From the NCBI GenBank assembly GCA_964472295.1, contig CAYYJQ010000002.1, positions 32,074-96,073 of the forward strand: a stretch of DNA of 64,000 nucleotides. The letters run 5' to 3'. Positions within the stretch are counted from its first letter, which is position 1, and every line of letters begins with the position of its first letter. This DNA is from an uncultured Thermodesulfobacteriota bacterium. Its GTDB lineage: Bacteria; Desulfobacterota; GWC2-55-46; JADFVP01. A program made the translations under genes and the position numbers. The notes under the pieces are model-generated. The model was not told the origin of the DNA, did no database searches, and was given only the letters and a program-made list of their open reading frames with translations. Shown here one piece after another: positions 1-23,284 of the stretch.

Positions 1-1076
1 ACCGAGTTTGCCGAAGACAGGATGCTTGCCGCCTGATACGAGGTTCCAGTACCAGACCATCTTTGGCCCTGAAGATATGATGAGCAGGGTGCGTTGAACG
101 ATCTCACTGGCGTGAAGCCTGTCCCTTCTCTCCTCCAGTTCCTCGGGGATATTATGCGCGAACATTCTAACATCAGGAGGATACCCCTTCAACCCACGGT
201 CAAAGACCGAATAATCTTTTTTGATCACCCTCTTGAGTTTTCCCAGCACCTTCCTGTCTGGATACTCCATCGGCGTAGGACCGCCGTACTCGGTAACGAC
301 CATGGGCTTGGAGAGACCGAGCTCGTTCATCTTTTCCTTGAACCAGTTAATCCTGTAGGGAATATCGTAAAGGTCGTTGTATATATGGAGGTCGAAGATG
401 TCAAAGTACTTGCTCCCGTGCTTGAAGACATATTCAATTACCTCGTGCCGGGCAGGGGCCGCACCCATAAAATGCCCAGAATGCCCCCCAAAGATAACCA
501 TCGCGTCAGGGTTAACCCCCTTAACGGTCTGAGAAAAGGCCTTTAGCAGCCTGACATAATTCGCTGGCGTATCGTCCCAGAACTTCCTGCTATCGATCTC
601 CCAGTCACACTCAAAGTACCTGACCTTTCCCTCGGTCCTCTCGACGAGCTCACGGACAAAGCTCTTGTAATGCTCCATATCCTTGGGCATGGACGCTTCG
701 CCCCTTGAGGTCCAGGGGCTGTTTGTCTTTATCCTTATAAGGGCCCTGTCGCCATCTCTCAACTGTTTCACAAAGTTGTCAACAGCCCTCCAGTTACGGT
801 GGCCCTTCCGGGGCTCTACCTCCTTCCACCTGATATTGATATGGGTGGAGTTGATATTAAGCTCCCTTATATAATTCAGGAACTTACCCCCCTTGTAAAA
901 TCCACCATAGGCCACGCCGAGGGGGTTCTCATCAAACTCCACCTTACCGCCGAACTCTACTGCGCTATTAAATCTACCTCCCTGGTGCGCGCTTACGTCC
1001 CTGTCCGCACCCATAAAAAACAACATCAGCAGAAATACACCAGATAGAGCCTTTGTTAATGCAGATCTTCGCGTCA
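1..1076 (-). CDS. secreted glycoside hydrolase, TIM-barrel clan GH-A-like (GH5/GH42-like); 3' end runs off the window
   Basis: Not in the ORF track because there is no stop in the window. Minus-strand translation from the ATG at 1076..1074 reads MTRRSALTKALSGVFLLMLFF (signal peptide) ... HINIRWKEVEP ... KMNELGLSKPMVVTEYGGP, giving a TEYG-type nucleophile context. The gap to the upstream gene at 1109 is 32 nt. Confidence 0.5.
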
Positions 1077-1108
1077 TGGTCGCTCCTTAAATAAACAAGA
1101 ACAAATAC

Positions 1109-3115
1109 TCAGGGTATGGAGTGATGAACTACTGACTCACCCTGTGGCGAAATCTCAACCCAGCTGACGAACCTTCTGTTACCGTTCAATACCAGGACCC
1201 TCGGGTTGAGCACTTTGCTATTAATGGCGTTGCTTAGCTTCACGGGGCTCGTCCAGACCGCCCCGTCATACTTCATGTAATAGACCTCTCCGTGACCGTC
1301 CCTGTAGTCAACCCACGCGAGGTACAGAAAGTTGGCATCTCCGGCGGCGGTGGGATACCAGGCGTTTACGCCGCTTAGAGTGGGATGCACAGGAACAGAC
1401 CACGTAAGCCCGCCATCTACAGACTTGGACATGAATATCTCCCAGGGGCCCTTCCTGTTATCTACAAAAAAGAGATAGGGCTCTGACTTAAATACCGTAA
1501 CAAAAGGGGTGATGGATTGAGCGCGGTCATCGCCGATGTCAACGGGCGCACCCCAGAGAGCAGACTTAGATGGTCTGCTCATAATGTAAACGTCCCAGTC
1601 ACCGGCAACTCCGTGTCTAACAAGTCTCTGATAGGCCATCACCAGGCCCTGCCCCAGATATTCGGCACTAATCCCCGCAGGAAAAGAGATCCCCTCGGCG
1701 ATCACCTCTTTCTGTCTCTTAGCATTAACATGGTAGGCATACTTTGCCTTTATGGCGCCAAACTCCTCTGTATACAGAATCGCTTTGCCTCGGCTGTCCG
1801 AGACCACGATAGGCTCGTAGACCCAGGCCGGTTTGGTGCTGGCCGTCTCTATGACGCTCTTGGCCACTATATGCTCTGAGTCCCATGTCTGGCCAAAATC
1901 AGGGCTGTTACGGTACTTGAGAGACCAGAGCCCGCCCTTAAGGTCTATCCATATCACATGGAGGCCGTCCTTGTTAACAGAAATATCAGAGAACTTTGTC
2001 ATAACGCCACTGGCGCTCAACTGGAGCGACGGAGACCAGGACCTTGTGGCGTCGTCATACATTGAAAAATAGACTTCATAGACCCCGCTACTGTTGTCGC
2101 GCCAGACCTTATAGGCCTTTCCTTCATAGGAAGCAGTACGGAGGTCTCTTAAATGGACATCAAATGTGCCAGAATAGTTAAAAAAATCTACTATGCTGTT
2201 TCCCTCTGCAAAAGGGGTCTCAAACCCCATGAGTTCACCTATCGTTGGGGCGATGTCAACATGATAGTACTGAGTGGAAACTTGCATGTTCGCCGGGGAG
2301 TCAGGTCCGAGTATCAAAAGCATAATATCCCTGTCCCCGTCACACATGCCCGTATGGTTCTGGAAACCACCATGAGCGTTATCATGGCGTCCATGATCTG
2401 TAGTTATGATAAGGGTTGTATTGTCCTTGTAGAAGGGGTCGGTCTGGATATGGTTCCATAACTCGGCCACATAATTGTCGGCTGTCCTGATGGTATTGAC
2501 ATAATTGTTCCAGTCACCGCTGTGACCGCTCAGGTCTACGTCCTCGAAGTTGATAAAGAGGAGCCTCGGATGGTCTGTGTCGAGCACGGAGAGGGCCTTC
2601 TGATAGGTCTGGTCATCAGGTCCTGTTATGGCGAGTTTTGCCGCGTAATCTATCCCGTAGCCCGGGTAGATGCTGTAATTTATCATATTAAGAGAACCTT
2701 TTCCAACGACCGCCCAGGTCTCACGCTGAGTGAGACCGAGGCCCTTTCTGGCGTACTCGAAGATCGTTGGGGTCTCGGGCCGGGCATTCATCCATCTCTC
2801 GGTGTTAGGTGCCCAATGCCATCTACCGGTAATGATATTGTAATGCCCGGGGGTAGTATACGTAGCGAAAACGTTCTTGAAATTTGTAAAAGCAGTCCCC
2901 TGCGGACGGAGCTCGCCCCATATGCGCGGTATATAGGGATGTGTTACTTCTCCCGGGTTAAAGCGGTACTTCAAGGCCTCTGTATTCCTGAGCCCATCAA
3001 TGGTAATGACTATGACGTTTCTGGTGGTATAGGCAAGGGCACGATGCGAAAGCCCCAGGGTGAGGGTCAGGAAGAGAAGAAAGACTGACAAGTATCTCGA
3101 TATGGATAGCCGCAA
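1109..3115 (-). CDS. secreted nucleotide pyrophosphatase/phosphodiesterase (alkaline-phosphatase superfamily, NPP-type) fused to C-terminal BNR/Asp-box repeats
   Basis: N-terminal signal peptide MRLSISRYLSVFLLFLTLTLGLSHRALA. NPP-type core motifs VIVITIDGLR, TTPGHYNIITG and ITTDHGRHDNAHGG. The C-terminal half carries Asp-box repeats SVDGGLTWS and DFGQTWD. Confidence 0.7.
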   Translation of the reverse strand: MRLSISRYLSVFLLFLTLTLGLSHRALAYTTRNVIVITIDGLRNTEALKYRFNPGEVTHPYIPRIWGELRPQGTAFTNFKNVFATYTTPGHYNIITGRWHWAPNTERWMNARPETPTIFEYARKGLGLTQRETWAVVGKGSLNMINYSIYPGYGIDYAAKLAITGPDDQTYQKALSVLDTDHPRLLFINFEDVDLSGHSGDWNNYVNTIRTADNYVAELWNHIQTDPFYKDNTTLIITTDHGRHDNAHGGFQNHTGMCDGDRDIMLLILGPDSPANMQVSTQYYHVDIAPTIGELMGFETPFAEGNSIVDFFNYSGTFDVHLRDLRTASYEGKAYKVWRDNSSGVYEVYFSMYDDATRSWSPSLQLSASGVMTKFSDISVNKDGLHVIWIDLKGGLWSLKYRNSPDFGQTWDSEHIVAKSVIETASTKPAWVYEPIVVSDSRGKAILYTEEFGAIKAKYAYHVNAKRQKEVIAEGISFPAGISAEYLGQGLVMAYQRLVRHGVAGDWDVYIMSRPSKSALWGAPVDIGDDRAQSITPFVTVFKSEPYLFFVDNRKGPWEIFMSKSVDGGLTWSVPVHPTLSGVNAWYPTAAGDANFLYLAWVDYRDGHGEVYYMKYDGAVWTSPVKLSNAINSKVLNPRVLVLNGNRRFVSWVEISPQGESVVHHSIP

Positions 3116-3180
3116 GATTAACCCCTGGCTTCAGATATGATAGACACGTTGAGAGCGCCCGGGTATTTCATAAGGGACCT

Positions 3181-3208
3181 CTCCTTAATTCAGGGACGAA
3201 TTAAGGAG
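3181..3208. repeat. hairpin CTCCTTAATTC-AGGGAC-GAATTAAGGAG, member of a motif family also at 59901..59930 and 60042..60069
   Basis: Perfect 11-bp stem. The loop is the reverse complement of the GTCCCG/GTCCCT loops of the copies near the porin gene. It lies about 90 nt 5' of the minus-strand start at 3115. Confidence 0.6.
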
Positions 3209-3294
3209 AAACCAACCTTTAGAGACAGCAAGAGGAGTATGCTTACGAATTAAAGAGTCCTCTATTCATAAAGCCGCCTCCATGCCTTGTTGAA

Positions 3295-5703
3295 TCATTG
3301 AACTACATCAATGGCGTCCAGGGGCACAACTCCTCCGCTGGACAGGGGGTTCCTGCTCCCGCTTACCTCAATCCTCAGCGTATGCGTCCCAGCCGTTGGC
3401 CCGGAATACTCAAAGACCGGGACAGAGACCCTTGACGTTGGTGAATAAAGGTCAACAGACTGAACAAATACATCATCAACAAATACATCGGCTATCCCGT
3501 GGCTGGGGCCCATGGCTGACATCCAGCGTACAAGCCTCCCATAGAACTGGAATTGCATATAGTTTCCCGTATGGCTGGAAAACTTTAGTGTTCCGCCGCT
3601 CAAGGCAGGGTCGTCATGGTCGTTCCATTGTCCTTTATAGTATATGAGGTCACTGCTTTCTTCATAACGGTTAAGGTACTGTACGCCGCTCCAGGTGGCG
3701 CCACCATCGAGTGACCTGAAAAGCCCTTTGTAAGTGCCTGCGAAGATGGTTCCGTCAACTGCGAAGTTCGGCGATAGCTCTATGCACCTTACCATGTTAG
3801 GTAATAGTCCCGTACTGCTGAGACTCCAGCTAGCGCCACTATCAGTACTCTTGTAAACCCCTCCCACAAGCGTGCCGGCAAATACCACATGGTCCTTAAG
3901 ATAATTCGGTGAGAGTGCGAGGGCGTTAACCGTACTGTATGGCAGGCCGTTATTCATGGCAACCCAGGTCTGCCCATCGTCAGTGGACCTGAATACCCCG
4001 TCTCCTGATGTGCCGATAAATATGGTTCTGTCCAGGGAGTAGGATGGCGAGAGGCCTATCACCTCTGCGGACACATGCTCTATTCCCAGATTGACGGCAA
4101 TCCATGAATTCCCACGGTCGCTCGACTTGTATATGCCCCGTCTCGTGACGCTGACAAAGACCGTGCCGTCTCTTGCGTAGTCCGGCGATACGGCAATCGC
4201 CCTTATGCCGGGATTGGGCGGCAGACCGGTATTCGCCTGGGTCCACGTTACTCCGCCGTCTACTGAGCGGAAGACCCCCTCACCGTACTCCGATGAGGCG
4301 AAAACAGTCTGGTCAACAAAAAAGTTTGGCGACAACTTGAGCTGGCGCGCATATAACGTGGAGCCTGGTCTCAAGGGATAAAAGTTCCACGTCCCACCCC
4401 CGTCTACTGTCTTGTAAACGCCGAGGTCTGTGCCGAGGAGCACTGTCCTGTCAAGGATATAGGCAGGGGAAATATCAATGGGGTCGATATAGGTATTGGT
4501 AATTGTCTTGTTTTTAACCCTCCACGTCTCGCCATGGGTAGTCGACTTCAAGACGCCCCCCCCGTATGTTCCGGCAAAGACCGTTCCGTCCAGGGCATAT
4601 GTGGCTGATACGGCGATGGAACGGTTCGTGGTCTGGGGAATAACGTTGGCGGAGAGCCAGATGTTGCCCTGTGTGTTTGAATAAAAGAGACCTTCAAAGG
4701 TGGCGATGTAAAGGGTTTTATCAGAGAGATAGGCAGGTGATATCTCTATATCTCTAAAGTGGAAAGTCGTCTGAGGCGAGAGGTGCTGGAGGCCGTTGTT
4801 CAGTTCCTGCCAGGTAGCGCCGCCGTCTTTGGAGCGAAAGACGCCGGAGCCCTGGGAGATGCAAAACATATGGCTATTGGGGGCAACCTCCACGTCACTG
4901 ATATTAAGGTCTGGAAGCCCGGTATTTATGGCCGACCAGGTACTTCCATCATCAATGCTCTTGAATACACCACCGCCTATGGTAGAGGCCACAACCGTGT
5001 GAGTTGTAAGATAAGACGGTGAGACCGCAACAGAGGTGACATCGAGGCTTGTCAACCCTATATTTACAGTACTCCAGCTACCCCCGGTATCGATGCTTTT
5101 GTATATTCCGTACCCCTGCACCGAGACGAAAACCGTAAAGGCCGCGCCGTAGGTAGTGCCGAGCTCTATCGCGGTAACAGCGCCGGCGCCGGCGCCGGTA
5201 TTTAACGAGGTCCACGTCTGCCCGCCATCAATGGACTTGTATACAAGCCCCCCATCGGTTCCGAGGAAGAGGGTCCGGTCTATTGAGAATGAAGGAGAGA
5301 TTGCCAGCGCCGTAACGCTCGGAGTCCCTATGCCGTTGTTGCTGGCGGTCCATGACTCCCCGCCGTCAGTGGAGACGTATACACCGGAAACGGTCCCGGC
5401 GAAGATGATTCCGTCAGTCGTGAAATCAGGTGAAAAAACAGCGGCCTGAACCTTTATGTTCGACATGGGGTCTGTAGGCGGATAAAAACTCATACCCCCG
5501 TCCACGGACTTGAAGAGCACGTTCTTCTCATCGAGATCGATAAGGAGAGTGCTGTCTGAGGCGAAAGCAGGGCTTAGCGCCACTATACTAATGGGGTCAT
5601 GAGGCTGATGCGCAAAGGCACCTGTGGGAAAGAGCCCTACCATCCCAAGACATAAGGAAAGAACAATACACCCTATTAACCTTCTCAAATCCATCTTCAA
5701 CAT
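3295..5703 (-). CDS. secreted BNR/Asp-box repeat protein (tandem beta-propellers) with a C-terminal carbohydrate-binding-like beta-sandwich domain
   Basis: Signal peptide. At least 11 SxDxGxTW repeats, for example STDGGESWT, SIDGGQTWT, SKDGGATWQ, STDDGQTWV and SLDGGATWS. The C-terminal roughly 140 aa reads ...GTHTLRIEVSG...VPLDAIDVVQ, typical of CBM-like sandwiches. Confidence 0.7.
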   Translation of the reverse strand: MLKMDLRRLIGCIVLSLCLGMVGLFPTGAFAHQPHDPISIVALSPAFASDSTLLIDLDEKNVLFKSVDGGMSFYPPTDPMSNIKVQAAVFSPDFTTDGIIFAGTVSGVYVSTDGGESWTASNNGIGTPSVTALAISPSFSIDRTLFLGTDGGLVYKSIDGGQTWTSLNTGAGAGAVTAIELGTTYGAAFTVFVSVQGYGIYKSIDTGGSWSTVNIGLTSLDVTSVAVSPSYLTTHTVVASTIGGGVFKSIDDGSTWSAINTGLPDLNISDVEVAPNSHMFCISQGSGVFRSKDGGATWQELNNGLQHLSPQTTFHFRDIEISPAYLSDKTLYIATFEGLFYSNTQGNIWLSANVIPQTTNRSIAVSATYALDGTVFAGTYGGGVLKSTTHGETWRVKNKTITNTYIDPIDISPAYILDRTVLLGTDLGVYKTVDGGGTWNFYPLRPGSTLYARQLKLSPNFFVDQTVFASSEYGEGVFRSVDGGVTWTQANTGLPPNPGIRAIAVSPDYARDGTVFVSVTRRGIYKSSDRGNSWIAVNLGIEHVSAEVIGLSPSYSLDRTIFIGTSGDGVFRSTDDGQTWVAMNNGLPYSTVNALALSPNYLKDHVVFAGTLVGGVYKSTDSGASWSLSSTGLLPNMVRCIELSPNFAVDGTIFAGTYKGLFRSLDGGATWSGVQYLNRYEESSDLIYYKGQWNDHDDPALSGGTLKFSSHTGNYMQFQFYGRLVRWMSAMGPSHGIADVFVDDVFVQSVDLYSPTSRVSVPVFEYSGPTAGTHTLRIEVSGSRNPLSSGGVVPLDAIDVVQ

Positions 5704-5726
5704 GATAATCCTTCTCTTACCAGGAC

Positions 5727-7973
5727 CTAAGGCTGAATGGTGAATGCAAAGTGCCCTTCATTCCATACCCTTGAGTAAGACCCTACAAAAGCGTTATAGG
5801 TGTAATTAGACGTGCCTGCGCCTAATGGTATATCGTGACTCATTACCTTGCTGATAGACGAATGGGCCTTTATGGTAAGCGGAACAGGATCAATGAACTC
5901 ACCCGCCGCCGGATACTTCGTACCATTGGGCAAGGTTATGTTGGTCCAGTAATCAAAGGTCAGGTCAACATTTGAGTCGTTAGTAAGAGTGAGGAGGTAT
6001 TTTAGCTTGCCTCCCAAGGGGACAGCAACACTTTCGGGTGTCAAGGTCATGGTCACGCTCGGTTCGGTCAGGGTCAGGAGGTTGTCCGCCGCAACATTAT
6101 AGAGCGTCTGCATAATTCCGCTTGGCCACCTTACTGTAAGCGAATCCACTGTCTGGCTTGTGCCAAGGCCAAAGTGTATGATCTGAGAATTTTGCGAAAA
6201 ACGCGAAGCCCCGCCGGTCTGTTGCCTTGTAGCTGTTCTGGCTCCAATAGTTGCCCTGACCGTAGCGCCTACGGAATCACGGTTATCAACCGAGCCCACG
6301 AGTTTGACCTTGAGCCAGTGGTTGAGGTTTCCATTATTGTGATAAAGGAGGTGGGGGCCGAAACTGAAAGGGGCCATGCCGAAACCGTTAGCGACAAAGA
6401 TGTCCATAAAGCCATTATTGTCATAGTCGCCGATAGCGGCGTTCTCTCCCCTGCCGCCCACATTCGCCTCGACGCCGCTTAATGCGGCGACCTCGGTAAA
6501 GGTCTTGTCTCCGTTATTCATGTACAGGGTGTTGGGCGCGTTGAAGATATGGTCGAGATTAACGACATAGAGGTCGAGATACCCGTCATTGTCAAAGTCG
6601 GCCCAGTTCGCCGAGATGCTGACAGAAAGGTCTGCCGTGTTGGAGGCCGCTGATACGTCGGTAAAGGTTCCGTCTCCCATGTTTTCAAAGAGAATATTGG
6701 GGAATAACTTGAGACTGAACATATCGAAGTTAAAGGGCGTAACAGAAGTTATCGCACCGCCGCTCTTGATAATGCCGGTAAAACTCTCGCCAGAACGGGT
6801 AGAAACTGTCGTGCTCCTAAGGTACCACGTCCCGGCCTCTTCCCAGACGTAGTACGCTGTCTCGGCGCCAGGTGTATAGGCGGGTTTACCGTGAACCTCG
6901 GGAGACCATGACGCCACAGTGAAGGGCATGGACGCCGGATGGACCCCGCTTGCGCCGATGTAGACCTGTGAGGGGTCCACACGCACCTGAAAATTAGATA
7001 TGTCAAATGTAACGGCAGTGCCGGTGGTCGTAAAATCTACGCCCTTCTCGTCCCCCCCGAAGACATCGGTCATGAAATATATGCCACTGCCGTCCCATTG
7101 AATGGTGTCATTTTCGGCGCCCCGTGCAAGGTATAGATCCATATCGCCGTCATTGTCATAGTCTCCCCATGTAAAATCCTGGGCGTAGAATTGCCCACCA
7201 AGACCTGCGGCGTCAGTTACGTCCGTGTAAACTCCGCCGCCGTCATTTCGAAAGAGCATTACCCTGTCTCGGGACTGGAGGTAAATGTCCATTAGGTTGT
7301 CATTGTTGTAATCAACGGCAGTGCCCATGATGGCGCCCATGGCGCTCAGGCCAAGAGAGGGGCCCACGTCCGTAAATGTATCGTCTCCGTTGTTCCTCAT
7401 GAGCGTGGAAGGGTATCCGGTAAGTCTCTCACTACAGAGATACAAGTCAAGGCGTCCATCGAGGTCGTAATCAACCCAGAAACCTCCTCTTGACCGGGCG
7501 TGCGGCACGTCCAGACCAGCAGTAACGGCAATCTCCTCGAAGAGGCCTGTGCCGAGGTTTTTGTAAAGCTTGTTACGGCCCCCACCCTGTGACCGGTTAC
7601 CCCCCTGGGCCTGAAAAAGGTCTTCAAAACCATCGTTGTTGTAGTCGCCCCAGACCGCGCCGTGAAAGTCGCCCACAGGGACGATACCGTAACTATCGGC
7701 CACGTTCTGAAAGGTAAGGTCACCAAGGTTCATAAAGAGCGCTGGCGGGGTCTGCACGTCGGCATGTTGCAACGAATAGTGGTGATTCCCGATATATATG
7801 TCCTCGAGGCCGTCGTTGTTTACATCTCCCCAGGAGACTCCCCATGTGGGTGATACCTGGCTTACTCCTGCCTGGGCCGACACCTCTGTAAAAGAGGTCT
7901 GCGCCGAGGCCTGACCGCTGAACACACTTAAAGAAAGAATAATAATCGCCAGTATTGGAATAATTTTTTTCAT
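5727..7973 (-). CDS. secreted FG-GAP/VCBS-repeat protein with C-terminal ASPIC/UnbV domain (CRTAC1-like)
   Basis: Repeated DYNNDGFEDLF, DYDLDGRLDLYL, DFDNDGYLDLYVVN and DYDNNGFMDIFVANG Ca-binding FG-GAP motifs. An UnbV/ASPIC-like tail reads VGATVRATIG...SLTVRWPSG. The ORF extends to 8015, but the start is likely the Met at 7973, which begins the signal peptide MKKIIPILAIIILSLSVFSGQASA. It abuts the downstream gene with a 23-nt gap, so they are co-transcribed. Confidence 0.75.
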   Translation of the reverse strand: MKKIIPILAIIILSLSVFSGQASAQTSFTEVSAQAGVSQVSPTWGVSWGDVNNDGLEDIYIGNHHYSLQHADVQTPPALFMNLGDLTFQNVADSYGIVPVGDFHGAVWGDYNNDGFEDLFQAQGGNRSQGGGRNKLYKNLGTGLFEEIAVTAGLDVPHARSRGGFWVDYDLDGRLDLYLCSERLTGYPSTLMRNNGDDTFTDVGPSLGLSAMGAIMGTAVDYNNDNLMDIYLQSRDRVMLFRNDGGGVYTDVTDAAGLGGQFYAQDFTWGDYDNDGDMDLYLARGAENDTIQWDGSGIYFMTDVFGGDEKGVDFTTTGTAVTFDISNFQVRVDPSQVYIGASGVHPASMPFTVASWSPEVHGKPAYTPGAETAYYVWEEAGTWYLRSTTVSTRSGESFTGIIKSGGAITSVTPFNFDMFSLKLFPNILFENMGDGTFTDVSAASNTADLSVSISANWADFDNDGYLDLYVVNLDHIFNAPNTLYMNNGDKTFTEVAALSGVEANVGGRGENAAIGDYDNNGFMDIFVANGFGMAPFSFGPHLLYHNNGNLNHWLKVKLVGSVDNRDSVGATVRATIGARTATRQQTGGASRFSQNSQIIHFGLGTSQTVDSLTVRWPSGIMQTLYNVAADNLLTLTEPSVTMTLTPESVAVPLGGKLKYLLTLTNDSNVDLTFDYWTNITLPNGTKYPAAGEFIDPVPLTIKAHSSISKVMSHDIPLGAGTSNYTYNAFVGSYSRVWNEGHFAFTIQP

Positions 7974-8042
7974 GAATAAACGAAGACCCATCTTATACAA
8001 CCCCACGAAGTCCACATAATAACCAACAAGGTTATGGAAGGT

Positions 8043-8140: not shown

Positions 8141-8414
8141 CATCTCCCCTTATTTCAAGGACGAACTAAGAGGAGGTTCCCTATATTAAAAAAACAATGT
8201 AGCCATATGCTACGGCATTATACATAATTTCAAGATATTTTGCAAGCCGTTGCCCCATGGAGGGAAGGCATCATTAACCATATTTTACAGGCCCCTCCAG
8301 TAGCCCATGACCTGAACCTGGTTTACGCTACGATAGAACCCATGGCCAAACAGGGACCTTCAAAATGGAGAGTTTCCCATGATTTTCCTGAGTCGTACAA
8401 CATCTCCCTTCGTA

Positions 8415-10849: not shown

Positions 10850-12520
10850 CTACAGGTAACCGAGTCCCTTAAGCCTCTCCTCCACCTCTTTGCTGTCCTC
10901 ATCGGAGTACTCGGTAATCTCTCCCTGACCTGAAAATTCCGTGGCCTTGCCCCTGCTCACGGGCCTGCCCTCTGTGAAAGACCGCTCAAAGACCTCCTTC
11001 AGCACCCGCCCATCCATGTCCTCGGGAACGTCCTCACCGAGGGCGTAGAGTATGGTTGGGGCTATGTCCGTAATGCGCGCCCCCTCGACCCTCTCGTCCT
11101 TTTTTATGACAGGACCAAGGGCCATGAAGACCCCGTCGAGCCTGTGAGTTCCTATATGGAGGTAATCCGAGGCGTCTACCTTCTGGTACTCGCCGAAGCA
11201 GTCTCCGCTCTCGCGCCCCGGGGTATTGGATGTATAAAAAGAGTAGTCCTTCCAGCAGATGATAAGGTCCGGCGCTTCCTCGATCATCTCTCCCCTGTAG
11301 AGGTCCTCCTTCCTGTATACCTTCTCGACTATCTTCTCCCCGCTCTCGGGGTCGGTAAGGGCCTCTATCTCCTCGATGCAACGGGACCGCATGTCTTCGT
11401 ACTCCGCACCGGGCTCCACTATCCCGCCGGGCTCCCTGCCCTTGAGGTTTATGAAGATATTCCCGTACATGCCGAAACCATAGGCCTTTGTCCTGGACCA
11501 GTCTATGTCGTTAAAGAACCTGTAGGACTCGACGCGGTCCCGCACGCCGGGAAGAAAGGTCTTCATGAAGTTTTTGGCCTTTCGCGGCAAGAACCTCTTG
11601 GCCATGTAGCGCCCCATCTCAAGGGTCTTGAAGGCCGCGCCGCCGTTACTATCAAGATAGGCGAGATACCCGTTGAGCTCAAGCCATCTATTGAGATAGA
11701 AGAACCTCTTTATGGGGCCAGAGCCATGGTCTGAGATAATGAAAACGGCAGTGTTGCCATGGGCGTCAGCCCTTTCGAGGAGTTTTCCTATCTGCCTGTC
11801 AACATTCACATATGTCTTTACTATGAGGTTCTCGGGGTCCACCCTTCCAGCGGCAAGCTCGCGCTCCAGTTCCAGGGTGAAGTACTGGTGCTGGACCCTG
11901 TCCGTATTGGTATATGCCGTCATGAAGAGGTCTGTTGGGGTCTTGTCCCAGAGGTAGAGGCCTATATCAGTCCGATTCCTGTCCTCGGCCTGTATATCCC
12001 TCCAGAACTTGTCTTCTTCCACCCTCTTTCTCCCTATGGGAGAAGCGAGGTGTATGTAGTAGTTCCCGAAGCGTTCCCTTATCTCGGCGAGGAGTTCCGG
12101 CGGGTATACGGCCCGCTCATCCTCGGCGGGCGAATCCATGCCAGAGAGCATGAACCCATTGACAGGCTCTGGAGGGTAGGTAAAGGGCACGGCGATACAA
12201 CCCACCTTACTGCCCCTGCGGCTCAGGTGCATGAAGATGGATTCCGCGGACCTTCTGGAGGCGTTTACGAACTCTATGCCATAGGACCCCTCGCGGCGCC
12301 TGATAAAATCAAAAACGCCGTGCTTTCCGGCGTTCTTTCCCGTGAAAAAACTACTCCACGCCTGCGGGGTTATGGGGTGTATGGTGGAGCGTAGCGGCCC
12401 GTGCATGCCTTCGGAGAAGAACCTCGCGAAGTTGGGCAGGAGCCCCTTTTCCACAAGAGGGTTTATGACCTCAAAGGTGGCGCCGTCCACGCCGATTACC
12501 ATTACCTTTAGACTCTCCAT
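10850..12520 (-). CDS. cytoplasmic alkaline-phosphatase-superfamily protein, NPP/type-I phosphodiesterase family (paralog 1 of 4)
   Basis: MVIGVDGATFEVINPL...STIHPITPQAWSSFFTGKNAGKHGVFDF, with an NPP-type metal/nucleophile context. No signal peptide. An acidic linker is followed by the C-terminal tail ERLKGLGYL. Confidence 0.75.
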   Translation of the reverse strand: MESLKVMVIGVDGATFEVINPLVEKGLLPNFARFFSEGMHGPLRSTIHPITPQAWSSFFTGKNAGKHGVFDFIRRREGSYGIEFVNASRRSAESIFMHLSRRGSKVGCIAVPFTYPPEPVNGFMLSGMDSPAEDERAVYPPELLAEIRERFGNYYIHLASPIGRKRVEEDKFWRDIQAEDRNRTDIGLYLWDKTPTDLFMTAYTNTDRVQHQYFTLELERELAAGRVDPENLIVKTYVNVDRQIGKLLERADAHGNTAVFIISDHGSGPIKRFFYLNRWLELNGYLAYLDSNGGAAFKTLEMGRYMAKRFLPRKAKNFMKTFLPGVRDRVESYRFFNDIDWSRTKAYGFGMYGNIFINLKGREPGGIVEPGAEYEDMRSRCIEEIEALTDPESGEKIVEKVYRKEDLYRGEMIEEAPDLIICWKDYSFYTSNTPGRESGDCFGEYQKVDASDYLHIGTHRLDGVFMALGPVIKKDERVEGARITDIAPTILYALGEDVPEDMDGRVLKEVFERSFTEGRPVSRGKATEFSGQGEITEYSDEDSKEVEERLKGLGYL

Positions 12521-12531
12521 TAATACCCCTT

Positions 12532-14058
12532 CTATAGATACCCCAGGGCCTTGAGGCGTCCCTTTATCTTATCAACTTCCATGTCCCCTTCGTCGCTGGC
12601 CGCGGCGCTGGTAGGATTGAAGCTCTCTATGTACGATACAGGAAGGTCCTCGGTGAAGATACCCTTAAGGACCTTTCCCGGCATGTCCCTCGCCACCTCC
12701 ACGCCCATGAGGGCAAGAGATGTGGGGGTAATATCGTATATAGAGGCATCGGGCATTGACTTGCCCACCTTGATGCCGGGGCCTGCCGCCATGAATACGC
12801 CCTCGAGTTTGTGGTCCCCCGAGACGTCAGCCTTGTGCGGCGAGAAGAGCCGGGAGAAGGGCACTTCGCCGAACCTCTCCGCCCTAATCACCCGTTGCGG
12901 GTCCATGACAACGCCGGAGAACTGGTCCCCGAGTTTTATCCCGATGAGCGACTCCTCGTAGATAATATCAAAAACCTTCTCGCCAGTATCGGCAAAACGC
13001 ATCTCCTCGACAATCCCGGAGACTTCCTTAAGGAGATCCCTGTCATTAAAGTACATGAAGGTCATGAAACCTATGTTGGCGGGTATTACCTTTTTCTCAA
13101 TGCCAATGAGGCCGAGAAAGACCTCGTGATTCAACCTAAAGGACTCCTTGAGCATTTCCATGGCCTGGGCCCCGTGGTCGGAGATGAGCATTATGGTGGT
13201 ATCGCTCCCGGCGGCGTTCATGAACTCGCCTACTGTCCTGTCGGCCTCGATGTAAGACCGGGGAATTACATCCGCGTACCTTGAAACAAGGTCTCTATCC
13301 ACGTCCTTGAACCTCTCGGGCTCATAGTACTTCCAGTACCTGTGTGCAAGGGCGTCGCAGAGGTGTATGTGAAAGGTGGCGAAATCGGGCCTGTGAAGTC
13401 CATAGAGGTAGGTGAAGAACTCGGAGCATATCCTCAGGTGCAGGGCCGCCTTTTTCCAGTACTTCTCATCATCAGGGGGCCGCCGGACCATGTTATTGGC
13501 AAGAAAGACGAGGCTCTCAAGAAGGGTACGCGCGCTGACGCCGTGTTTCTTGAGTTTCAGCGCATAACCAACGAAGGTGCCCAGCCTTGAGGACCCCTTG
13601 CCCTTTGACTCAAGCTCGGGTTTGTTCTTCTTTCTCTCACCCAATGTGAGTTCCTGCAAAAAGCTGTATTCCTCGGGGTATGTCTCAGGGCCTATGGAAA
13701 AGAGGGACGGTATCATGAAACCATTTACCGGGTAGGGGGGCCAGGTGACAAAACTTCCAAAGACCCCTACCTTATGCCCCTTCTCGCTCAATATGTCCCA
13801 TATGCGCCGCACCTTCACCATGGACGATGAACTTCCGAAGAACTCCACGCCATGCTCATTGGAACTCTTCCCGGAAAAGATGGTAACCCATAGACGCGGC
13901 GAGATAAGGGGGTGCTCGGAGATGAGGTTGCCCGATACACCTCTTCTCATGAGCGCGGCTATATTGGGGAGCTTGCCAGAGGAAATGAGCGGGTTCATTA
14001 CATCCCAGGTGGCCCCATCGAGCTCAATAATCATAAGTTTTGATCGAAGTCCTCTCAT
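12532..14058 (-). CDS. alkaline-phosphatase-superfamily NPP-family protein (paralog 2)
   Basis: The ORF-track frame extends to 14301. The likely start is the Met at 14058 (MRGLRSKLMIIELDGATWDV), with GGTGGAG 5' of it overlapping the stop of the upstream gene. Motif ISPRLWVTIFSGKSSNEHGVEFF. C-terminal tail GRLKALGYL. Confidence 0.7.
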   Translation of the reverse strand: MRGLRSKLMIIELDGATWDVMNPLISSGKLPNIAALMRRGVSGNLISEHPLISPRLWVTIFSGKSSNEHGVEFFGSSSSMVKVRRIWDILSEKGHKVGVFGSFVTWPPYPVNGFMIPSLFSIGPETYPEEYSFLQELTLGERKKNKPELESKGKGSSRLGTFVGYALKLKKHGVSARTLLESLVFLANNMVRRPPDDEKYWKKAALHLRICSEFFTYLYGLHRPDFATFHIHLCDALAHRYWKYYEPERFKDVDRDLVSRYADVIPRSYIEADRTVGEFMNAAGSDTTIMLISDHGAQAMEMLKESFRLNHEVFLGLIGIEKKVIPANIGFMTFMYFNDRDLLKEVSGIVEEMRFADTGEKVFDIIYEESLIGIKLGDQFSGVVMDPQRVIRAERFGEVPFSRLFSPHKADVSGDHKLEGVFMAAGPGIKVGKSMPDASIYDITPTSLALMGVEVARDMPGKVLKGIFTEDLPVSYIESFNPTSAAASDEGDMEVDKIKGRLKALGYL

Positions 14059-14065
14059 CTCCACC

Positions 14066-15595
14066 TCACATGTACCCAAGGCTCTCAAGGCGCTTACGCA
14101 TCTTCGCGTAGTCCACGGGTTCTTCTTTACCGGAGGCCGCCTCTCCGCTCTCGTAACTCTCAACGTAACGTATGGGATGTTCCTTGAGGAAGTCTTTCGT
14201 AAATATGGCCTTGACGGGACTGCCGTCCATGTCCTTTGCAACGGGATAACCTGCAAGGGCAAGTACCGTTGGAGCAACGTCCATGATGGAGGCGTCCCCA
14301 AGGGAGGAGCCTCTCTTTACGCCTTTACCGTGGAAGAGAAAGATGCCGTTATCCTTGTGCACGCCAGTAACACGGAGCTTCCTTGTGGGGAAGAGATCAG
14401 CAAAACGGTAAGTCCCCAAATCAGCGACAGAGACCTCGGTATCGTCGTTGACATCGGTACGCCAGAGCTTCGTAGTGGTCTGTATGCTGAGATACCTCTC
14501 GTACTGGTCCACCTTGAAGATGCTCTCCTTTGTCCCGGCAAAGGCTATCTTCTCGATAACACCCTTGGCACGCGCCATCTCTTCTTTATCCCTCGAGGGA
14601 AAGGTCAGGTAGACCTTTATGCCGAAACGCGCCGGTATGACGCTGTTCTCAAGGCCGAGTATCTTGAGAAACCTCTCTATGTCGAGGATATGGGGCTGAA
14701 TCGCATCGGGCATGGCACCAAAGCCGTGGTCCGATACAAGCACCACGCTTGTATCATCGTCTATCATATCAAGAAAAGCGCCCACGGTCCTGTCGAGCTC
14801 CATATAGGCCTCGGGGATGACCCCGGCAAACTTGGCAGTAGCGGCGTCAGGGGCCTTGGAAAACTTCTCGGGCTCATAAGACTCCCAGTACCTGTGCGAT
14901 ATGGCGTCGCAGAGGTGGACATGGAAGGTTGCAAACTCAGGCCTATGCCTCTTGTAGAGGTTAATAAAGAGCTCGGTAAGCATCCGGTGGTAAATGGTGG
15001 CCTTTCGCCAGTACTTGTCCAAGGGAGTGTGGCTTCCGGCCTTCTCCCAGAGAAAATACTTTAACATGTAGAGAAATGTGCTATTGCTTATCCCATTCCT
15101 CTGCAGACCTTTGACGGCCTTCAATATGGCGAAGAGCTTACCGCTCCTTGAGGCCTTCTGGGTCAACTTCCTTCTTTCCCTCAGCACCACTTCCTGAAAG
15201 GAGCTGTACTCCTCGGGATAAGTCTCCGGCCCCATGGCGAATACGCTCGGTATAATAAAGCCATTTATGGGGTATGGAGGCCAGGTTACGAGGCTTCCCA
15301 CCACCCCCACCTTATTTCCCTGGTCATTAAAGATGTCCCAGAGCCGTTTCTGACGCACGGACTTGGCGGAGTCGCCGAAGAACTCCACTCCGTGTTTTTC
15401 GGAGCTCTTCCCCGTGAAGATGCTCGTCCATATCCTCGGTGAGATCATGGGCTGTTCGGAACGGAGCACCCCCCAGGAACCGCGGTCCATCAAGCCCTTG
15501 ATGTTGGGAAGGCGCCCCTTGTCAACAAGGGGCTTCATCACATCCCATGTACCGCCGTCAACTTCCACTATTAGTATCTTAGAGGCTGGCTTCAT
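14066..15595 (-). CDS. alkaline-phosphatase-superfamily NPP-family protein (paralog 3)
   Basis: ILIVEVDGGTWDV...MISPRIWTSIFTGKSSEKHGVEFF. C-terminal tail KRLESLGYM. Confidence 0.75.
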   Translation of the reverse strand: MKPASKILIVEVDGGTWDVMKPLVDKGRLPNIKGLMDRGSWGVLRSEQPMISPRIWTSIFTGKSSEKHGVEFFGDSAKSVRQKRLWDIFNDQGNKVGVVGSLVTWPPYPINGFIIPSVFAMGPETYPEEYSSFQEVVLRERRKLTQKASRSGKLFAILKAVKGLQRNGISNSTFLYMLKYFLWEKAGSHTPLDKYWRKATIYHRMLTELFINLYKRHRPEFATFHVHLCDAISHRYWESYEPEKFSKAPDAATAKFAGVIPEAYMELDRTVGAFLDMIDDDTSVVLVSDHGFGAMPDAIQPHILDIERFLKILGLENSVIPARFGIKVYLTFPSRDKEEMARAKGVIEKIAFAGTKESIFKVDQYERYLSIQTTTKLWRTDVNDDTEVSVADLGTYRFADLFPTRKLRVTGVHKDNGIFLFHGKGVKRGSSLGDASIMDVAPTVLALAGYPVAKDMDGSPVKAIFTKDFLKEHPIRYVESYESGEAASGKEEPVDYAKMRKRLESLGYM

Positions 15596-17110: not shown

Positions 17111-18199
17111 CTATACGTAATCGCTGTCGCCAATAGATATGTCCCACATGGCCGCGTCTGTGACATCTACGGGAGGTGCGTCTTCACGCTCCCATCTCAC
17201 AATAAGATTGTGGTTGGTCTCCTTTACGGCAAAGCCCTTGTGACGCATGACTTCCCATGCATGGGAGTCCTCTCTCAACCAGGAGTTGACTGAATCAGCC
17301 TTCTCATCATAGCAGTAATTGACCGCGCGGTTTATCAAGACCCCCGTGACATCTATTTCCGGGTCAGAAAGCAGTTCCAGTATATAGCCACGCCTCATGT
17401 CTTCATTGAGTACGGCTACGACGGTAAAACCAACGACCACGTCGCCCTTCTCTATGGCAAAGACCCGATAATTGACAGAAGGACAGTCTACATAACGCCA
17501 GTTAAGATAAGCTGAGTCCTTGTAGAGCATAACCTTTACACGGGAAGAGACCGACTTGAGGAGCCTGTCGAAGCGCTCGTCGAACCTCTTTATCTCACTT
17601 ATGCGAAAACCCTCGGGCAGGGTTACGTCCGTGGAGTGCACCATGTGCATCAACGCTCCGGAGACCTTGCCGAGCACACGAGCAAGAGGCGCCGGCGCGG
17701 CCTTTTTTCTCAAAAACTCCCCGGGGTCGAGAACCCTCACAAGACGGCGCACAGGAAAAACGCTCTGGAACTTGAGTAGGCGCCTGCTTATCTTAAGCGT
17801 CTTATGAATGGAGTACCCGAAGACAATCTTCACCCCCGCCGGAGAAAGCAACTGTGTGGCGCAGTCGTGCAGTCTGAAGAAGGGCCCACCCTTCTGGAAC
17901 TCCGGAAGTATTACGATATCACAGGTCTGCGCACCGAGGACCTTCTGTCCATCTATCATCAGCCAGGTAGGAATAGCGCCTACCTGTCCCACAACTCTAC
18001 CGCTCTGTGCCTCTACGCCCACAGCCATAATGTGAGCGCCAGCGGGATTGGCATAGTACTTCCACCTCCAGAAGGCCATGTCCTTGTCTACGCCGAAGAC
18101 CGTCTTGTAAATCGCAGGCAGATACTTCAAGTCCCGCTCTTCGAGCTTGCGTATCTCAATATTCTTGAACCTTTCCCTGGCCATACTCCCTCTTATCAC
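17111..18199 (-). CDS. GNAT-fold / FemAB-like acyl(aminoacyl)transferase
   Basis: Roughly 360 aa. The architecture resembles the FemAB/BioF2-like acetyltransferase proteins common in EPS loci. No transmembrane segment. Confidence 0.45.
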   Translation of the reverse strand: MIRGSMARERFKNIEIRKLEERDLKYLPAIYKTVFGVDKDMAFWRWKYYANPAGAHIMAVGVEAQSGRVVGQVGAIPTWLMIDGQKVLGAQTCDIVILPEFQKGGPFFRLHDCATQLLSPAGVKIVFGYSIHKTLKISRRLLKFQSVFPVRRLVRVLDPGEFLRKKAAPAPLARVLGKVSGALMHMVHSTDVTLPEGFRISEIKRFDERFDRLLKSVSSRVKVMLYKDSAYLNWRYVDCPSVNYRVFAIEKGDVVVGFTVVAVLNEDMRRGYILELLSDPEIDVTGVLINRAVNYCYDEKADSVNSWLREDSHAWEVMRHKGFAVKETNHNLIVRWEREDAPPVDVTDAAMWDISIGDSDYV

Positions 18200-19869
18200 A
18201 GGTAACCCAGGCCCTTAAGGCGCTTTGCAACCTCTTCCTCGTCCTCCTCGGAGAGGAAACTGTCAGCCCCGGAATCAATGACAACACCCTCGTCGTCACT
18301 GAAAGCCGCCTTGTGTGATCTCAGGAATCTGCCCTTGATAATGCCATCAAGGGCCTGACCATCCATTCCCCTTGGAACAGGAACTCCAAGAAGTCTTAGA
18401 ATCGTGGGGGCAATGTCCATTATGTGCGCGCCCTCTACAGCGCCCTTCTTTTTCAAGTCTTTTCCGTAGCCGAGCAGAATCCCCTCCATCCGGTGCGTCC
18501 CCCAGCCGCTCGCATAGCTTGCCTTCTCAAAGACATGTCCCTTTAACTGCACGTCCGCCAGATAGGCCCCTCCCTTCAAGAAGAAGATTATATCAGGCGC
18601 ATCGTCAAGGTAGGGGCCGCTGTAGAGTTCCTCCTTCTTGTAGGTATGTGTAACAACGGCCTCGCCCGTGGCGGGGTCCCGCATCTTTTTGAGAGCGGCG
18701 ATGAGGTCGTCCCTGAACTCCTCGTATTCCTGGCCAGGGCTTATCACGCCATCTGGCTCACGTCCCTTGAGGTTAACATAAAAGCCCTGTTCAGTATTGG
18801 AGGCGGAGTAGGCCTTTGTTTTCGACCAGTTAATAACCTGAAGAAAGTCATATGCGTGTATCCTGCCGCCCTTGCCCCTGCTCGGAAGGATTCGTTTGCG
18901 CAGATTATGTTTGTCTATCCTTCTTAAGTACCTCTTCACCTTGAGCACGCTCTGGCGGAAGGCCATATGAGAGAGTTGTTTGCTCTGATTGAGCTCCAGG
19001 TATCCTTGCTGGTGCAGCCACTGGTTGACGTATACCTTCTTTTCAAGAGGACCGAAGCCGTGGTCTGATACCATGAGGATATTGGCCACATCCCCGTACC
19101 TCTCCATGACCTTGCCCATGAATGCGTCGACCATCTGGTAGTACTCTTTTATCTTCTTAACAAAGCCCTTCTCGCGCGTGGTGAGCGAGTCCGGATCCAC
19201 GGGGTGGATGTACTTCCAGAGATAGTGCTGTATGCGGTCGGAACCGATAAATACCGAGATGAAAAGATCCCATTGCTTGTTTTCCATAAGGTACTCGAAG
19301 GCCCGGCATCTCTGCTCCGTGCACTCGATAATCTCATCGAGAAACTTCTCCACACCACGCTCGCCGTAGTACTGCCACCATACATCCATGGTGTATCCGC
19401 CGATCTTGTTCTTCACCTCCTCGAAGAGACCCTCGGGGTATGAGATGTTCGTGGCGTTCCCGGGCGTTAGAAGACCGGTAATTACGAAACCGTCAACCTC
19501 TGGCGGCGGGTACGTTAGCGGCATGTTGACCATGCCCACCTTCATCCCCGCGTCGTTTACGAGTTTCAGTATGGTAGCGCTCCTGATATGCTTGTAGTTG
19601 ACAGGGTGGCGGCCGACCTCGTTCTTGCCGGCCTTTACAAAGTCATAGATGCCGTGCTTTCCGGGGTTCTTCCCTGTCATGAAGGAGACCCACGACGGAC
19701 CGGTAACAGGGGGAATAGATGAACGGAGGTCGCCACGCACCCCTTCTGCGCACATCTTCTGAAGGTTGGGGAGCTCACCCCTCTTCATGTATGGGTCGAG
19801 GGCGTCGAAGGTGGCCCCATCGAGACCTATCACTATAACCTTTTCATTTATCTTCTTTTTCATTACCAA
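18196..19869 (-). CDS. alkaline-phosphatase-superfamily NPP-family protein (paralog 4)
   Basis: VIVIGLDGATFDALDPY...SIPPVTGPSWVSFMTGKNPGKHGIYDF. C-terminal tail KRLKGLGYL. Confidence 0.75.
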   Translation of the reverse strand: MVMKKKINEKVIVIGLDGATFDALDPYMKRGELPNLQKMCAEGVRGDLRSSIPPVTGPSWVSFMTGKNPGKHGIYDFVKAGKNEVGRHPVNYKHIRSATILKLVNDAGMKVGMVNMPLTYPPPEVDGFVITGLLTPGNATNISYPEGLFEEVKNKIGGYTMDVWWQYYGERGVEKFLDEIIECTEQRCRAFEYLMENKQWDLFISVFIGSDRIQHYLWKYIHPVDPDSLTTREKGFVKKIKEYYQMVDAFMGKVMERYGDVANILMVSDHGFGPLEKKVYVNQWLHQQGYLELNQSKQLSHMAFRQSVLKVKRYLRRIDKHNLRKRILPSRGKGGRIHAYDFLQVINWSKTKAYSASNTEQGFYVNLKGREPDGVISPGQEYEEFRDDLIAALKKMRDPATGEAVVTHTYKKEELYSGPYLDDAPDIIFFLKGGAYLADVQLKGHVFEKASYASGWGTHRMEGILLGYGKDLKKKGAVEGAHIMDIAPTILRLLGVPVPRGMDGQALDGIIKGRFLRSHKAAFSDDEGVVIDSGADSFLSEEDEEEVAKRLKGLGYL

Positions 19870-22243: not shown

Positions 22244-23284
22244 TTACTTCTTGTAAAAGCCCAGCTCGGCTGCCCGCTTGTACACCTGTTTACGCTCCTT
22301 CAATATCCTCTCGTAATGCAGGGCATTGGAGGAATCGCACATCCTGCAAGTGGGAAGCCCCGAGAGGTCACGGTCGAGGTGCTTCCTTCTCAGCTCGTTA
22401 AAGGCTTCACTGTGCCAGAGGTCCTCTATACTCGAGTCGTTGAAGTTACCTACAGAGAGGGCGCCGTCTATATCTGCACAACATACGGTGGCGGTCCCGT
22501 CCCAGAATATGAGGAGGCGGTCGAAGAGCTGGTGGCAAGGCCTTACCTTCTCCCTTTCTCCGCGTTCCACGTGCGTAAGGTCCTCGACGTTTCCGTACCT
22601 CCCAACTGGCAGGACGTTTATCTTATCCGCATGAGCGGCCCATAGCTCAAAGACACCGTAGATCTCTTCCTCTGTGTCCTTGCTGAGTATGGTATTAATA
22701 ACCACTCGGGGTTTGTCCCTGCCCATATCGTTACGCATCTTTATCAAGGTCATTATATTATCCCTGACCTGCTCATATTTAGCGTTTACACGGATATTCT
22801 CGTAGGTTTCCCTGCTAGAGCCATCGAAGCTGAAAGTTATGGAGTCAAGCCCTGAATTGATTAGCCCTCTGGCCTTCTCCTCTGTCAAGAGCGTCCCGTT
22901 GCTTGTGAAGTAGACCCATGGCACACCCCTGTCCTTGGCATAGCGGATCATCTCCATGAGCCTGGGGTGCAACATGGACTCACCAAAGCGGTTGAGCTTA
23001 AGAACTGGAACCTTTATCTCCACCGCGTTGTCCACGATCCTCTTGAAGAGCTCCATGCTCATGAATCCGCTCTTACGCGTCATGCCGTCACGATCGCACA
23101 TAACACAGTTGAGGTTACAGACATCGGTAAGCTCGACGTAGACCGTAGGAGGAACTTTGGGAAGGATATGGAATTTTTTCTTTAAGGCCTTGCACGCGGA
23201 GTACAGAGGTTTTGCAAACCTTAGTGCTTTGACTTTTTTTAATTTTTGTATATCGGCAACCATCTCATTAGGCCTCTGATGCAA
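22244..23284 (-). CDS. radical SAM enzyme with C-terminal SPASM/twitch-type auxiliary-cluster domain
   Basis: CNLNCVMC (CX3CX2C) cluster motif. C-terminal Cys-rich region CCADIDG...GLPTCRMC. Confidence 0.8.
   Translation of the reverse strand: MHQRPNEMVADIQKLKKVKALRFAKPLYSACKALKKKFHILPKVPPTVYVELTDVCNLNCVMCDRDGMTRKSGFMSMELFKRIVDNAVEIKVPVLKLNRFGESMLHPRLMEMIRYAKDRGVPWVYFTSNGTLLTEEKARGLINSGLDSITFSFDGSSRETYENIRVNAKYEQVRDNIMTLIKMRNDMGRDKPRVVINTILSKDTEEEIYGVFELWAAHADKINVLPVGRYGNVEDLTHVERGEREKVRPCHQLFDRLLIFWDGTATVCCADIDGALSVGNFNDSSIEDLWHSEAFNELRRKHLDRDLSGLPTCRMCDSSNALHYERILKERKQVYKRAAELGFYKK

Follow-up and report, generated by a model that had tools for sequence, protein, structure and literature searches.

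Exopolysaccharide (EPS) loci that carry a hydrolase of their own are a well-established pattern, and enzymes of this kind, among them PslG and PelA, have found use in dispersing biofilms. PslG of P. aeruginosa, PelA, BcsZ, AlgL and PgaB are all EPS-locus-encoded hydrolases; by location the same class takes in gD, one of four adjacent genes (gA to gD) described here from an uncultured Thermodesulfobacteriota bacterium. The genes occupy one end of a 64,000-nt stretch (GenBank assembly GCA_964472295.1, contig CAYYJQ010000002.1, positions 32,074 to 96,073), which we refer to as the window, and they stand at the distal end of a conserved Wzx/Wzy-type EPS locus. Comparison of GlgA, 68% identical to that of named metagenome-assembled genomes, likewise puts the organism close to uncultured Thermodesulfobacteriota. 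On balance we favour the view that they form an accessory module of that locus, trimming or remodelling its polymer. Two of the proteins carry most of the interest. The product of gD appears to be a divergent PslG-like enzyme: the arrangement of a hydrolase with an EPS locus is familiar, and what is new is the enzyme, whose family has no Pfam model. The product of gC is a fusion of a putative phosphoesterase with a β-propeller. The fusion recurs in glycan loci of uncultured bacteria that are rich in Wzy, radical-SAM and nucleotide pyrophosphatase/phosphodiesterase (NPP)-like genes, and as an EPS accessory enzyme it would be new. For gC the described relatives belong to the alkaline phosphatase (AlkP) superfamily and include PafA, a general phosphate-scavenging phosphatase.

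The four genes are as follows (coordinates are those of the window):

5727-8015, minus strand: gA, predicted exported CRTAC1-like protein; 762 aa from a GTG start
3295-5703, minus strand: gB, predicted exported tandem BNR/Asp-box propeller protein; 802 aa
1109-3115, minus strand: gC, predicted exported fusion of an AlkP-superfamily domain and a propeller; 668 aa
1-1077, minus strand: gD, predicted exported PslG-like clan GH-A glycosidase with a modelled glycoside hydrolase family 39 (GH39) fold; residues 1-359 of 474 lie in the window

These are the four large open reading frames (ORFs) of positions 1-8015. All four are read from the minus strand, with transcription running from 8015 towards 1, and they are separated by 23 nt (gA/gB), 179 nt (gB/gC) and 31 nt (gC/gD), just as an initial annotation of the sequence had it: a co-directional set with gaps of 23-180 nt. 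The window edge cuts gD, and its full-length version (P0123, 474 aa) was taken from two near-identical Joint Genome Institute (JGI) contigs, L002 and L003. Each of the four products has exactly one N-terminal hydrophobic segment, with basic residues before it and an AxA-like site after it (ASA-Q, AFA-H, ALA-Y and VSA-H). The signal peptides ascribed earlier to all four proteins are thus matched by signal-peptide-like N-termini, as called by this heuristic combination of hydrophobic segment, basic residues and AxA-like site and not by SignalP.

The spacer between gA and the last gene of the EPS locus, a family 4 glycosyltransferase (GT4), measures 399 nt and holds one further feature:

8217-8245, minus strand: sigma-70-like promoter candidate TTGCAA-17-TATAAT, a consensus match only

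A locus from a JGI metagenome (L001) has TTGCAA-17-TAGTAT aligned to the same place and, because the two sites align, we consider it probable that gA-gD are served by a promoter of their own. Downstream of gD a gap of 414 nt follows in L002 and L003, and no terminator-like site was found after gD in L002. The case for an operon is therefore sequence-based: one strand, short gaps, a promoter-like site upstream of gA and no terminator-like site after gD. Strong domain E-values, together with a gene order that is kept in L001 with proteins 68-79% identical, place the set above chance.

The glycosidase gD and the fusion protein gC

The AlphaFold2 model of full-length gD (mean predicted local distance difference test score, pLDDT, 81) shows a (β/α)8 barrel followed by a C-terminal β-sandwich, the combination that defines the GH39/clan GH-A fold; the sandwich falls outside the window. 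Foldseek placed PslG at the top (4zn2, 9g17 and 5bx9; E ~1e-21, TM-scores 0.66/0.75), next the Bacteroides GH39 enzyme 5jvk and then other enzymes of GH39, GH51, GH5 and GH30. The top four matches, three to PslG and one to 5jvk, are all GH39 (E 1e-20 to 1e-22). What had been annotated as a TIM-barrel glycoside hydrolase is accordingly predicted to have this very fold, with PslG as the nearest solved enzyme.

Among nine homologues of gD, residues E160, E263, H231 and Y233 are invariant and W344 is conserved. E160 lies in the motif FExDWE, two residues past a predicted strand (154-158), and E263 in TEYGG; the H-x-Y formed by H231 and Y233, and W344, match the H-x-Y and the β-8 Trp of clan GH-A. 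The two glutamates are 103 residues apart. In PslG, Glu165 is the acid/base and Glu276 the nucleophile, 111 residues apart (PMC11912335). Alignment of gD with 5jvk by phmmer (E = 1e-8) runs four residues out of register at the E160 motif, and for this reason we infer, instead of reading directly from the alignment, that E160 is the acid/base.

Overall, gD shares with PslG the predicted fold, a similar Glu/Glu spacing, an N-terminal export signal and a location in or next to a polysaccharide operon. It differs in that identity is only ~16%, the Asn of the NEP motif is replaced (DWE), no Pfam GH39 match is returned and the EPS locus is unrelated to psl. An exhaustive profile search recovered 165 representatives of the gD family at E <1e-30 and 3,122 at <1e-10, of which remote members touch Pfam GH39 and GH42 marginally (PF01229, 27.9 bits against a cut-off of 26). 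Because the Pfam GH39 test failed at the level of sequence, we call gD PslG-like in fold and probable mechanism, and not a proven member of GH39.

The fusion encoded by gC falls into two parts:

2180-3028, minus strand: AlkP-superfamily catalytic domain, residues ~30-312 (AlphaFold model and Pfam)
1112-2156, minus strand: degenerate seven-bladed BNR propeller, residues ~320-668 (AlphaFold model)

An AlphaFold model built with 28 homologues (pLDDT 89.6) consists of an AlkP-type core and then a propeller of seven strand groups. Metal ligands D194, H198, D240, H241 and H254 are invariant among these homologues and D40 is present in 27 of the 28. The putative nucleophile, T87, is Thr in 22 and Ser in six, and sits in the sequence T-T-P-G-H-Y-N-I-I-T-G97, which is the NPP pattern TxPxH(x4)TG. 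The core therefore has the Thr motif and the six Asp/His metal ligands of an NPP, and lacks the C/S-x-P-x-R of S1 formylglycine sulfatases, with His in place of Arg.

Placement of the core within the superfamily is less clear-cut. Three Pfam families match above their cut-offs at nearly equal strength: Phosphodiest (PF01663, 3e-12, 47 bits against a cut-off of 23), Metalloenzyme (PF01676, 2e-11, 44.7 bits) and Sulfatase (PF00884, 2e-11, 44.0 bits), and these scores do not separate the families. Structural searches disagree on the nearest relatives: Foldseek ranked YejM and sulfatases first, with YejM/PbgA among the best matches and S1 sulfatases making up most of the list. Identity to the NPP/PafA branch (Xanthomonas NPP, PafA and ENPP4/6/7) is 19-20%; gC adds a seven-bladed propeller that those solved enzymes do not have, Pfam splits it from neither Metalloenzyme nor Sulfatase, and Foldseek prefers sulfatase/YejM folds. 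On balance the catalytic domain is closer to NPP/PafA than to sulfatases, but by a narrow margin.

That gC works as a sulfatase on an EPS bearing sulfate is, all the same, the least probable of the activities we considered. The Pfam and Foldseek results just given would suit such an enzyme, as would the sulfate-activation genes (CysD/CysN) that L003, from the same genome, carries ~7 kb downstream and a fusion of GT4 and Sulfatase domains elsewhere in the window (39648-43298). Its active-site motif, however, is TxPxH, with Thr or Ser in the proportions above, and not the formylglycine motif; moreover, we noted no gene for a formylglycine-generating enzyme in the vicinity of the operon, and the best NCBIfam matches of the radical-SAM/SPASM protein in the EPS locus are not of the anaerobic sulfatase-maturating (anSME) type.

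We regard as very improbable, too, that gC is a periplasmic phospho-substituent transferase adding phosphoethanolamine or phosphoglycerol to the EPS. BcsG, OpgB/MdoB, LtaS and EptA resemble it in belonging to the AlkP superfamily, in a Thr/Ser nucleophile, in periplasmic glycan targets and in being encoded in glycan loci. The Thr nucleophile is common to gC and these transferases, the best AlkP matches in Foldseek include YejM/PbgA and the Sulfatase-family fold shared with enzymes of the LtaS/EptA type, and NCBIfam gives a weak match to an OpgB-type phosphoglycerol transferase (E 0.006). Phospholipids are the donors of these transferases, which also possess a polytopic membrane domain, whereas gC has no membrane domain and is predicted to be soluble once its signal peptide is cleaved.

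The second half of gC had been described as BNR repeats, which occur in sialidases and GH74 glycanases. Its BNR_2 match in Pfam (7e-4) is below cut-off and only two canonical Asp-boxes are present, where the family consensus is ~6; those two nevertheless make it an Asp-box repeat domain. The nearest folds are CylK, the BP39L/CV39L/PLL lectins, PL25 and PL42 polysaccharide lyases and integrin alpha, all seven-bladed. Over the 28 homologues no polar residue is invariant in the propeller: conservation is confined to Trp, Pro, Gly and Asp-box positions. Sialidases have six blades, an Arg triad and a Tyr/Glu nucleophile pair, and by comparison with the propellers of sialidases (GH33) and GH74 enzymes that of gC is seven-bladed and conserves neither an Arg triad nor a Tyr or Glu. 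The fusion itself thus stands, as an AlkP core with an NPP-type Thr motif joined to a propeller, but its BNR part is a generic seven-bladed propeller. A catalytic BNR domain of sialidase or GH74 type is not supported; the initial annotation had itself named a generic fold devoid of catalytic or binding residues as grounds for rejecting its proposal, and as far as catalysis is concerned this applies. Because the core motifs are conserved and the propeller has no invariant polar residue, gC is probably an active two-metal phosphoesterase with a non-catalytic propeller, as judged from sequence and model. A binding role for the propeller is possible.

The gC family comprises more than 30 clusters and is unnamed, its members being labelled only 'sulfatase-like' or 'alkaline phosphatase family'. 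A search of the literature for this family, for PF01663 or for nucleotide pyrophosphatases in EPS clusters found nothing relevant.

Linkage to exopolysaccharide loci and the role of the operon

Upstream of gA, and co-directional with it, lies the EPS locus:

8415-29129, minus strand: Wzx/Wzy-type EPS locus (Pfam, NCBIfam)
18196-19869, minus strand: NPP-like paralogue (PF01663-type, predicted cytoplasmic)
14066-15595, minus strand: NPP-like paralogue (as above)
12532-~14058, minus strand: NPP-like paralogue (as above)
10850-12520, minus strand: NPP-like paralogue (as above)

From 29129 to 8415 the order is a Bac_transf fusion, Wza, Wzc, a radical-SAM/SPASM protein, a MurJ-type flippase and a WecG-type glycosyltransferase (GT), then an NPP-like protein (557 aa), a GNAT protein, Wzy, three more NPP-like proteins (509, ~507 and 556 aa), GT2 and GT4. 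The four NPP-like paralogues include two tandem duplicates. By the heuristic applied to gA-gD all four lack an N-terminal export signal, and NCBIfam has no family for any of them.

This arrangement is conserved. In L001 two NPP-like genes, GT2, GT4, gA, gB, gC and gD follow each other in the same order at 68-87% identity. A second locus (L088, from GCA_040961615.1) carries three NPP-like genes, GNAT (~360 aa), Wzy, GT2 and GT4 at 54-64% identity; here a gD orthologue (46%) comes directly after GT4, its start overlapping the GT4 stop; next are an orthologue of gA (50%) and a gene for an LVIVD propeller protein, and some way beyond them lies an S8 peptidase. The latter is 61% identical to the S8 peptidase found downstream of gD in the present genome, where L002 and L003 continue (L003, 5001-13131) with that peptidase, a polysaccharide deacetylase, a Phosphodiest protein (450 aa), CysD/CysN and type II secretion pseudopilins. 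In a deltaproteobacterial metagenome-assembled genome (L006) a gC homologue (31%) is located inside a locus for Wzc, a flippase, an NPP-like protein, a B12-binding radical-SAM protein and Wzy, with two gD-like genes directly upstream of it. Two further loci (L090 and L091) have gC homologues among genes for Wzy, GTs, radical-SAM, PMT-TPR and NPP-like proteins. In total, four of the eight independent contexts in which homologues of the gC fusion occur are glycan-assembly loci. The earlier proposal that the operon flanks, and is linked to, a glycan locus is thus upheld by conserved synteny in L001, L088, L006 and L090. Although not universal, the link to this type of EPS locus is real among close subfamilies and recurs with the fusion.

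Several observations weigh against a role in the neighbouring EPS. At the level of the proteins, gD has a Trp at the Asn position of the clan GH-A NEP motif and returned no Pfam match (E ≤ 0.01 for the window ORF, E ≤ 1 for P0123). The solved relatives nearest to the gC catalytic domain include PafA, and hundreds of relatives that consist of this domain only, often with type IX secretion system (T9SS) tails, occur outside EPS loci in Bacteroidota and Ignavibacteriota. At the level of gene context, L088, in other respects an orthologous locus, has neither gB nor gC, which are for that reason best seen as dispensable add-ons. No glycan-assembly genes stand beside the gC homologue in three of the eight contexts (L004, L089 and L092), and in another (L005) the homologue adjoins degradative proteins of the GH114/cellulase type. 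Relatives of gD at 28-39% identity are found in unrelated contexts, some of them next to transporters and a TonB-type receptor, and even a relative at 69% identity (P0125, in L087) has an unrelated context. A scan of metagenomes returned only gD relatives at ≤39% identity, none with window-like neighbours; Pfam searches on ten of the neighbours found no glycan-assembly genes. Since distant relatives of gD have no window-like neighbours, the connection between gD and EPS is limited to the close subfamily. In L087 the solitary gD homologue is surrounded by small ORFs and by genes for an actin-like ParM (ALP_N), a Cas4-like protein and AbiEii, a setting like that of a mobile element.

Much of this would fit a nutrient-scavenging secretome, in which gC serves phosphorus acquisition, gD attacks foreign polysaccharides, the propellers bind substrate and adjacency to the EPS genes is incidental. 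The structural proximity of the gC core to PafA and NPP, its many T9SS-tailed relatives, the transporters and receptor beside distant gD relatives, the degradative neighbours in L005, and an operon with an apparent promoter of its own 399 nt from GT4 all point in this direction. Even so, we consider it unlikely: the operon is syntenic with the same biosynthetic genes at 46-68% identity, to the extent of overlapping start and stop codons of gD and GT4 in L088, gC homologues are embedded within Wzy/GT/radical-SAM loci in L006 and L090, and no Pho-box, transporter or SusC/D-type uptake gene was seen next to the operon.

Under the remodelling reading that we favour, gD would be, by analogy with PslG and Psl, a retaining endo-glycosidase that, either periplasmically or extracellularly, cuts the polymer produced by the adjacent genes. 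Cleavage might serve chain-length control, the clearing of failed product or the release of cells. Such a role agrees with the idea, raised from the sequence at the outset, of a remodelling or degrading counterpart to the biosynthetic locus, which is plausible given the PslG-like fold of gD. The gC protein would act as a two-metal phosphoesterase with a Thr nucleophile, removing or cleaving a phosphate-ester substituent or linkage of the polymer while its propeller grips the chain; gA and gB would be non-catalytic propeller proteins that bind calcium or glycan in the matrix or at the cell surface. That the substrate of gC is a phosphodiester decoration of the EPS is plausible from context, but we put it forward with considerably less confidence than the overall reading. 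The phosphate group itself could be added by the four NPP-like proteins that the locus encodes, which are predicted to stay in the cytoplasm.

A more specific function for gC would be release of the EPS, by cutting the sugar-phosphate or pyrophosphate bond between polymer and undecaprenyl diphosphate (Und-PP) while the propeller holds the chain. To our knowledge the step by which Wzy-dependent EPS is released from Und-PP is unassigned in most systems, and an enzyme with an NPP/PafA-like two-metal core and Thr nucleophile that is predicted to be exported and recurs in Wzy-type loci has some of the expected properties. This is nonetheless very unlikely. The substrate is embedded in the membrane and gC has no anchor beyond a signal peptide that looks cleavable; furthermore, the orthologous locus L088 has no gC, and for that reason gC cannot be an essential release step.

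A broader proposal is that the locus makes a phosphate-ester-rich EPS (teichoic-acid-like, or a phosphoglycan) by means of the four cytoplasmic NPP-like enzymes, GNAT and radical-SAM proteins, with gC as its extracellular phosphodiesterase. We think this rather improbable; were it true, it would define a new family of EPS-remodelling enzymes across Thermodesulfobacteriota, Planctomycetota and other uncultured lineages, and a biosynthetic route not yet described. More generally, if gC acts on the polymer, this would indicate phosphate-ester chemistry in environmental EPS and make the enzyme a handle with which to dissect it. If it is inactive on the polymer, the cluster is one of ordinary secreted hydrolases beside an EPS locus.

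The propeller proteins gA and gB

For gA an alternative ATG at 7973 (MKKII...) is a likelier start than the GTG. The protein matches FG-GAP_3 (PF13517, 3e-41) and UnbV_ASPIC (PF07593, 3e-19) in Pfam and human CRTAC1 (9etn, 1e-19) in the PDB. These matches confirm its annotation as a CRTAC1-like FG-GAP/ASPIC protein: FG-GAP repeats are followed by UnbV_ASPIC, as in the CRTAC1/ASPIC-UnbV proteins, and the repeats carry six motifs of the DxDxDG type, predicted from sequence to bind calcium. It shares with that group the FG-GAP repeats with Ca-binding loops and the UnbV_ASPIC domain, and differs in being bacterial, in an extra C-terminal β domain (a β-rich tail of ~110 aa) and in its synteny with EPS loci in two lineages, where orthologues show 75% (L001) and 50% (L088) identity. 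A literature search on bacterial UnbV/FG-GAP proteins found nothing relevant.

Twelve canonical SxDxGxTW Asp-boxes, spaced by ~46 aa and divided into two groups of six, mark gB as an Asp-box repeat protein, for which Pfam returned Sortilin-Vps10 (3e-30), PSII_BNR and BNR. Asp-box repeats are common to gB (12), gC (two), the BNR propellers of sialidases (GH33) and GH74 enzymes and those of the Ycf48/sortilin type. Its PDB matches are 3b7f (1e-9) and the GH74 enzyme 4lgn (1.5e-6); the resemblance to GH74, whose members combine two seven-bladed propellers and carry a catalytic pair of Asp residues in the cleft, amounts to weak sequence similarity. Only L001 yielded an orthologue (68% identity).

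The tandem propeller proposed for gB fits the 6+6 arrangement of its Asp-boxes. The tail that had been called carbohydrate-binding module (CBM)-like is another matter: these 127 C-terminal residues have no significant family match (the best is CE2_N, E = 0.09) and no PDB match, so that 'CBM-like' stays a guess. When the gA and gB tails were assessed as CBM or immunoglobulin (Ig) domains, only non-significant hints were obtained, among them an RbmA-like fibronectin type III (FnIII) domain at 0.02.

Dispersed hairpins and the wider surroundings

A short hairpin is present in four copies in the window:

8148-8169, minus strand: hairpin in the gA leader, stem CTCTTAGTT/AAATAAGGG and loop CGTCCTTG, with an AT-rich hairpin next to it
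3183-3204, minus strand: second copy, in the 179-nt gB-gC spacer
59905-59926 and 60050-60061, plus strand: further copies near unrelated genes

The loop (CGTCCCTG) is conserved, and the stems vary by paired changes. Copies at 8148 and 59905 have a common prefix, GGAACCTC, and each is then followed by a second, AT-rich hairpin. The element has no Rfam match and is absent from L001, the locus with 68% identity. A conserved leader or riboswitch of the operon was considered and rejected: two of the copies lie near unrelated genes, Rfam gave no match and L001 does not have it. Because of this absence from L001 we view the hairpin as organism-specific and similar to repetitive extragenic palindromes (REP-like), and not as a conserved regulator; it is probably a REP-like dispersed palindrome, judging by its sequence and distribution.

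Three details of the EPS locus deserve mention. The Bac_transf gene (27375-29129, minus strand) fuses the initiating transferase to an N-terminal sugar-1-phosphate nucleotidyltransferase and a hexapeptide-repeat domain. One ORF, of 589 aa with a TTG start (12532-14301, minus strand), runs ~80 codons too far upstream, into the NPP-like gene before it; its likely start is MRGLRSKLMIIELDG, near 14058. The radical-SAM/SPASM gene (22244-23284, minus strand) has counterparts elsewhere: genes of the radical-SAM/SPASM and B12-binding radical-SAM kinds are repeatedly met in the related glycan loci (L006, L088, L090 and L091), and this recurrence suggests that a sugar or substituent is out of the ordinary, possibly a methylated one.

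Farther away, 1259 nt between the genes for a NirB-like reductase and an ammonium transporter (56114-57372) hold no ORF of ≥90 aa, a gap for which the ORF filter itself may be responsible. A second glycan locus, of the ABC-transporter (Wzm/Wzt) type, occupies 30386-47214. It holds methyltransferases, a PMT_2-TPR protein (1009 aa), a YfhO-like protein and the GT4-Sulfatase fusion mentioned above (39648-43298, plus strand), a protein of 1216 aa in which GT4 is joined to a C-terminal Sulfatase/SGSH_C domain.

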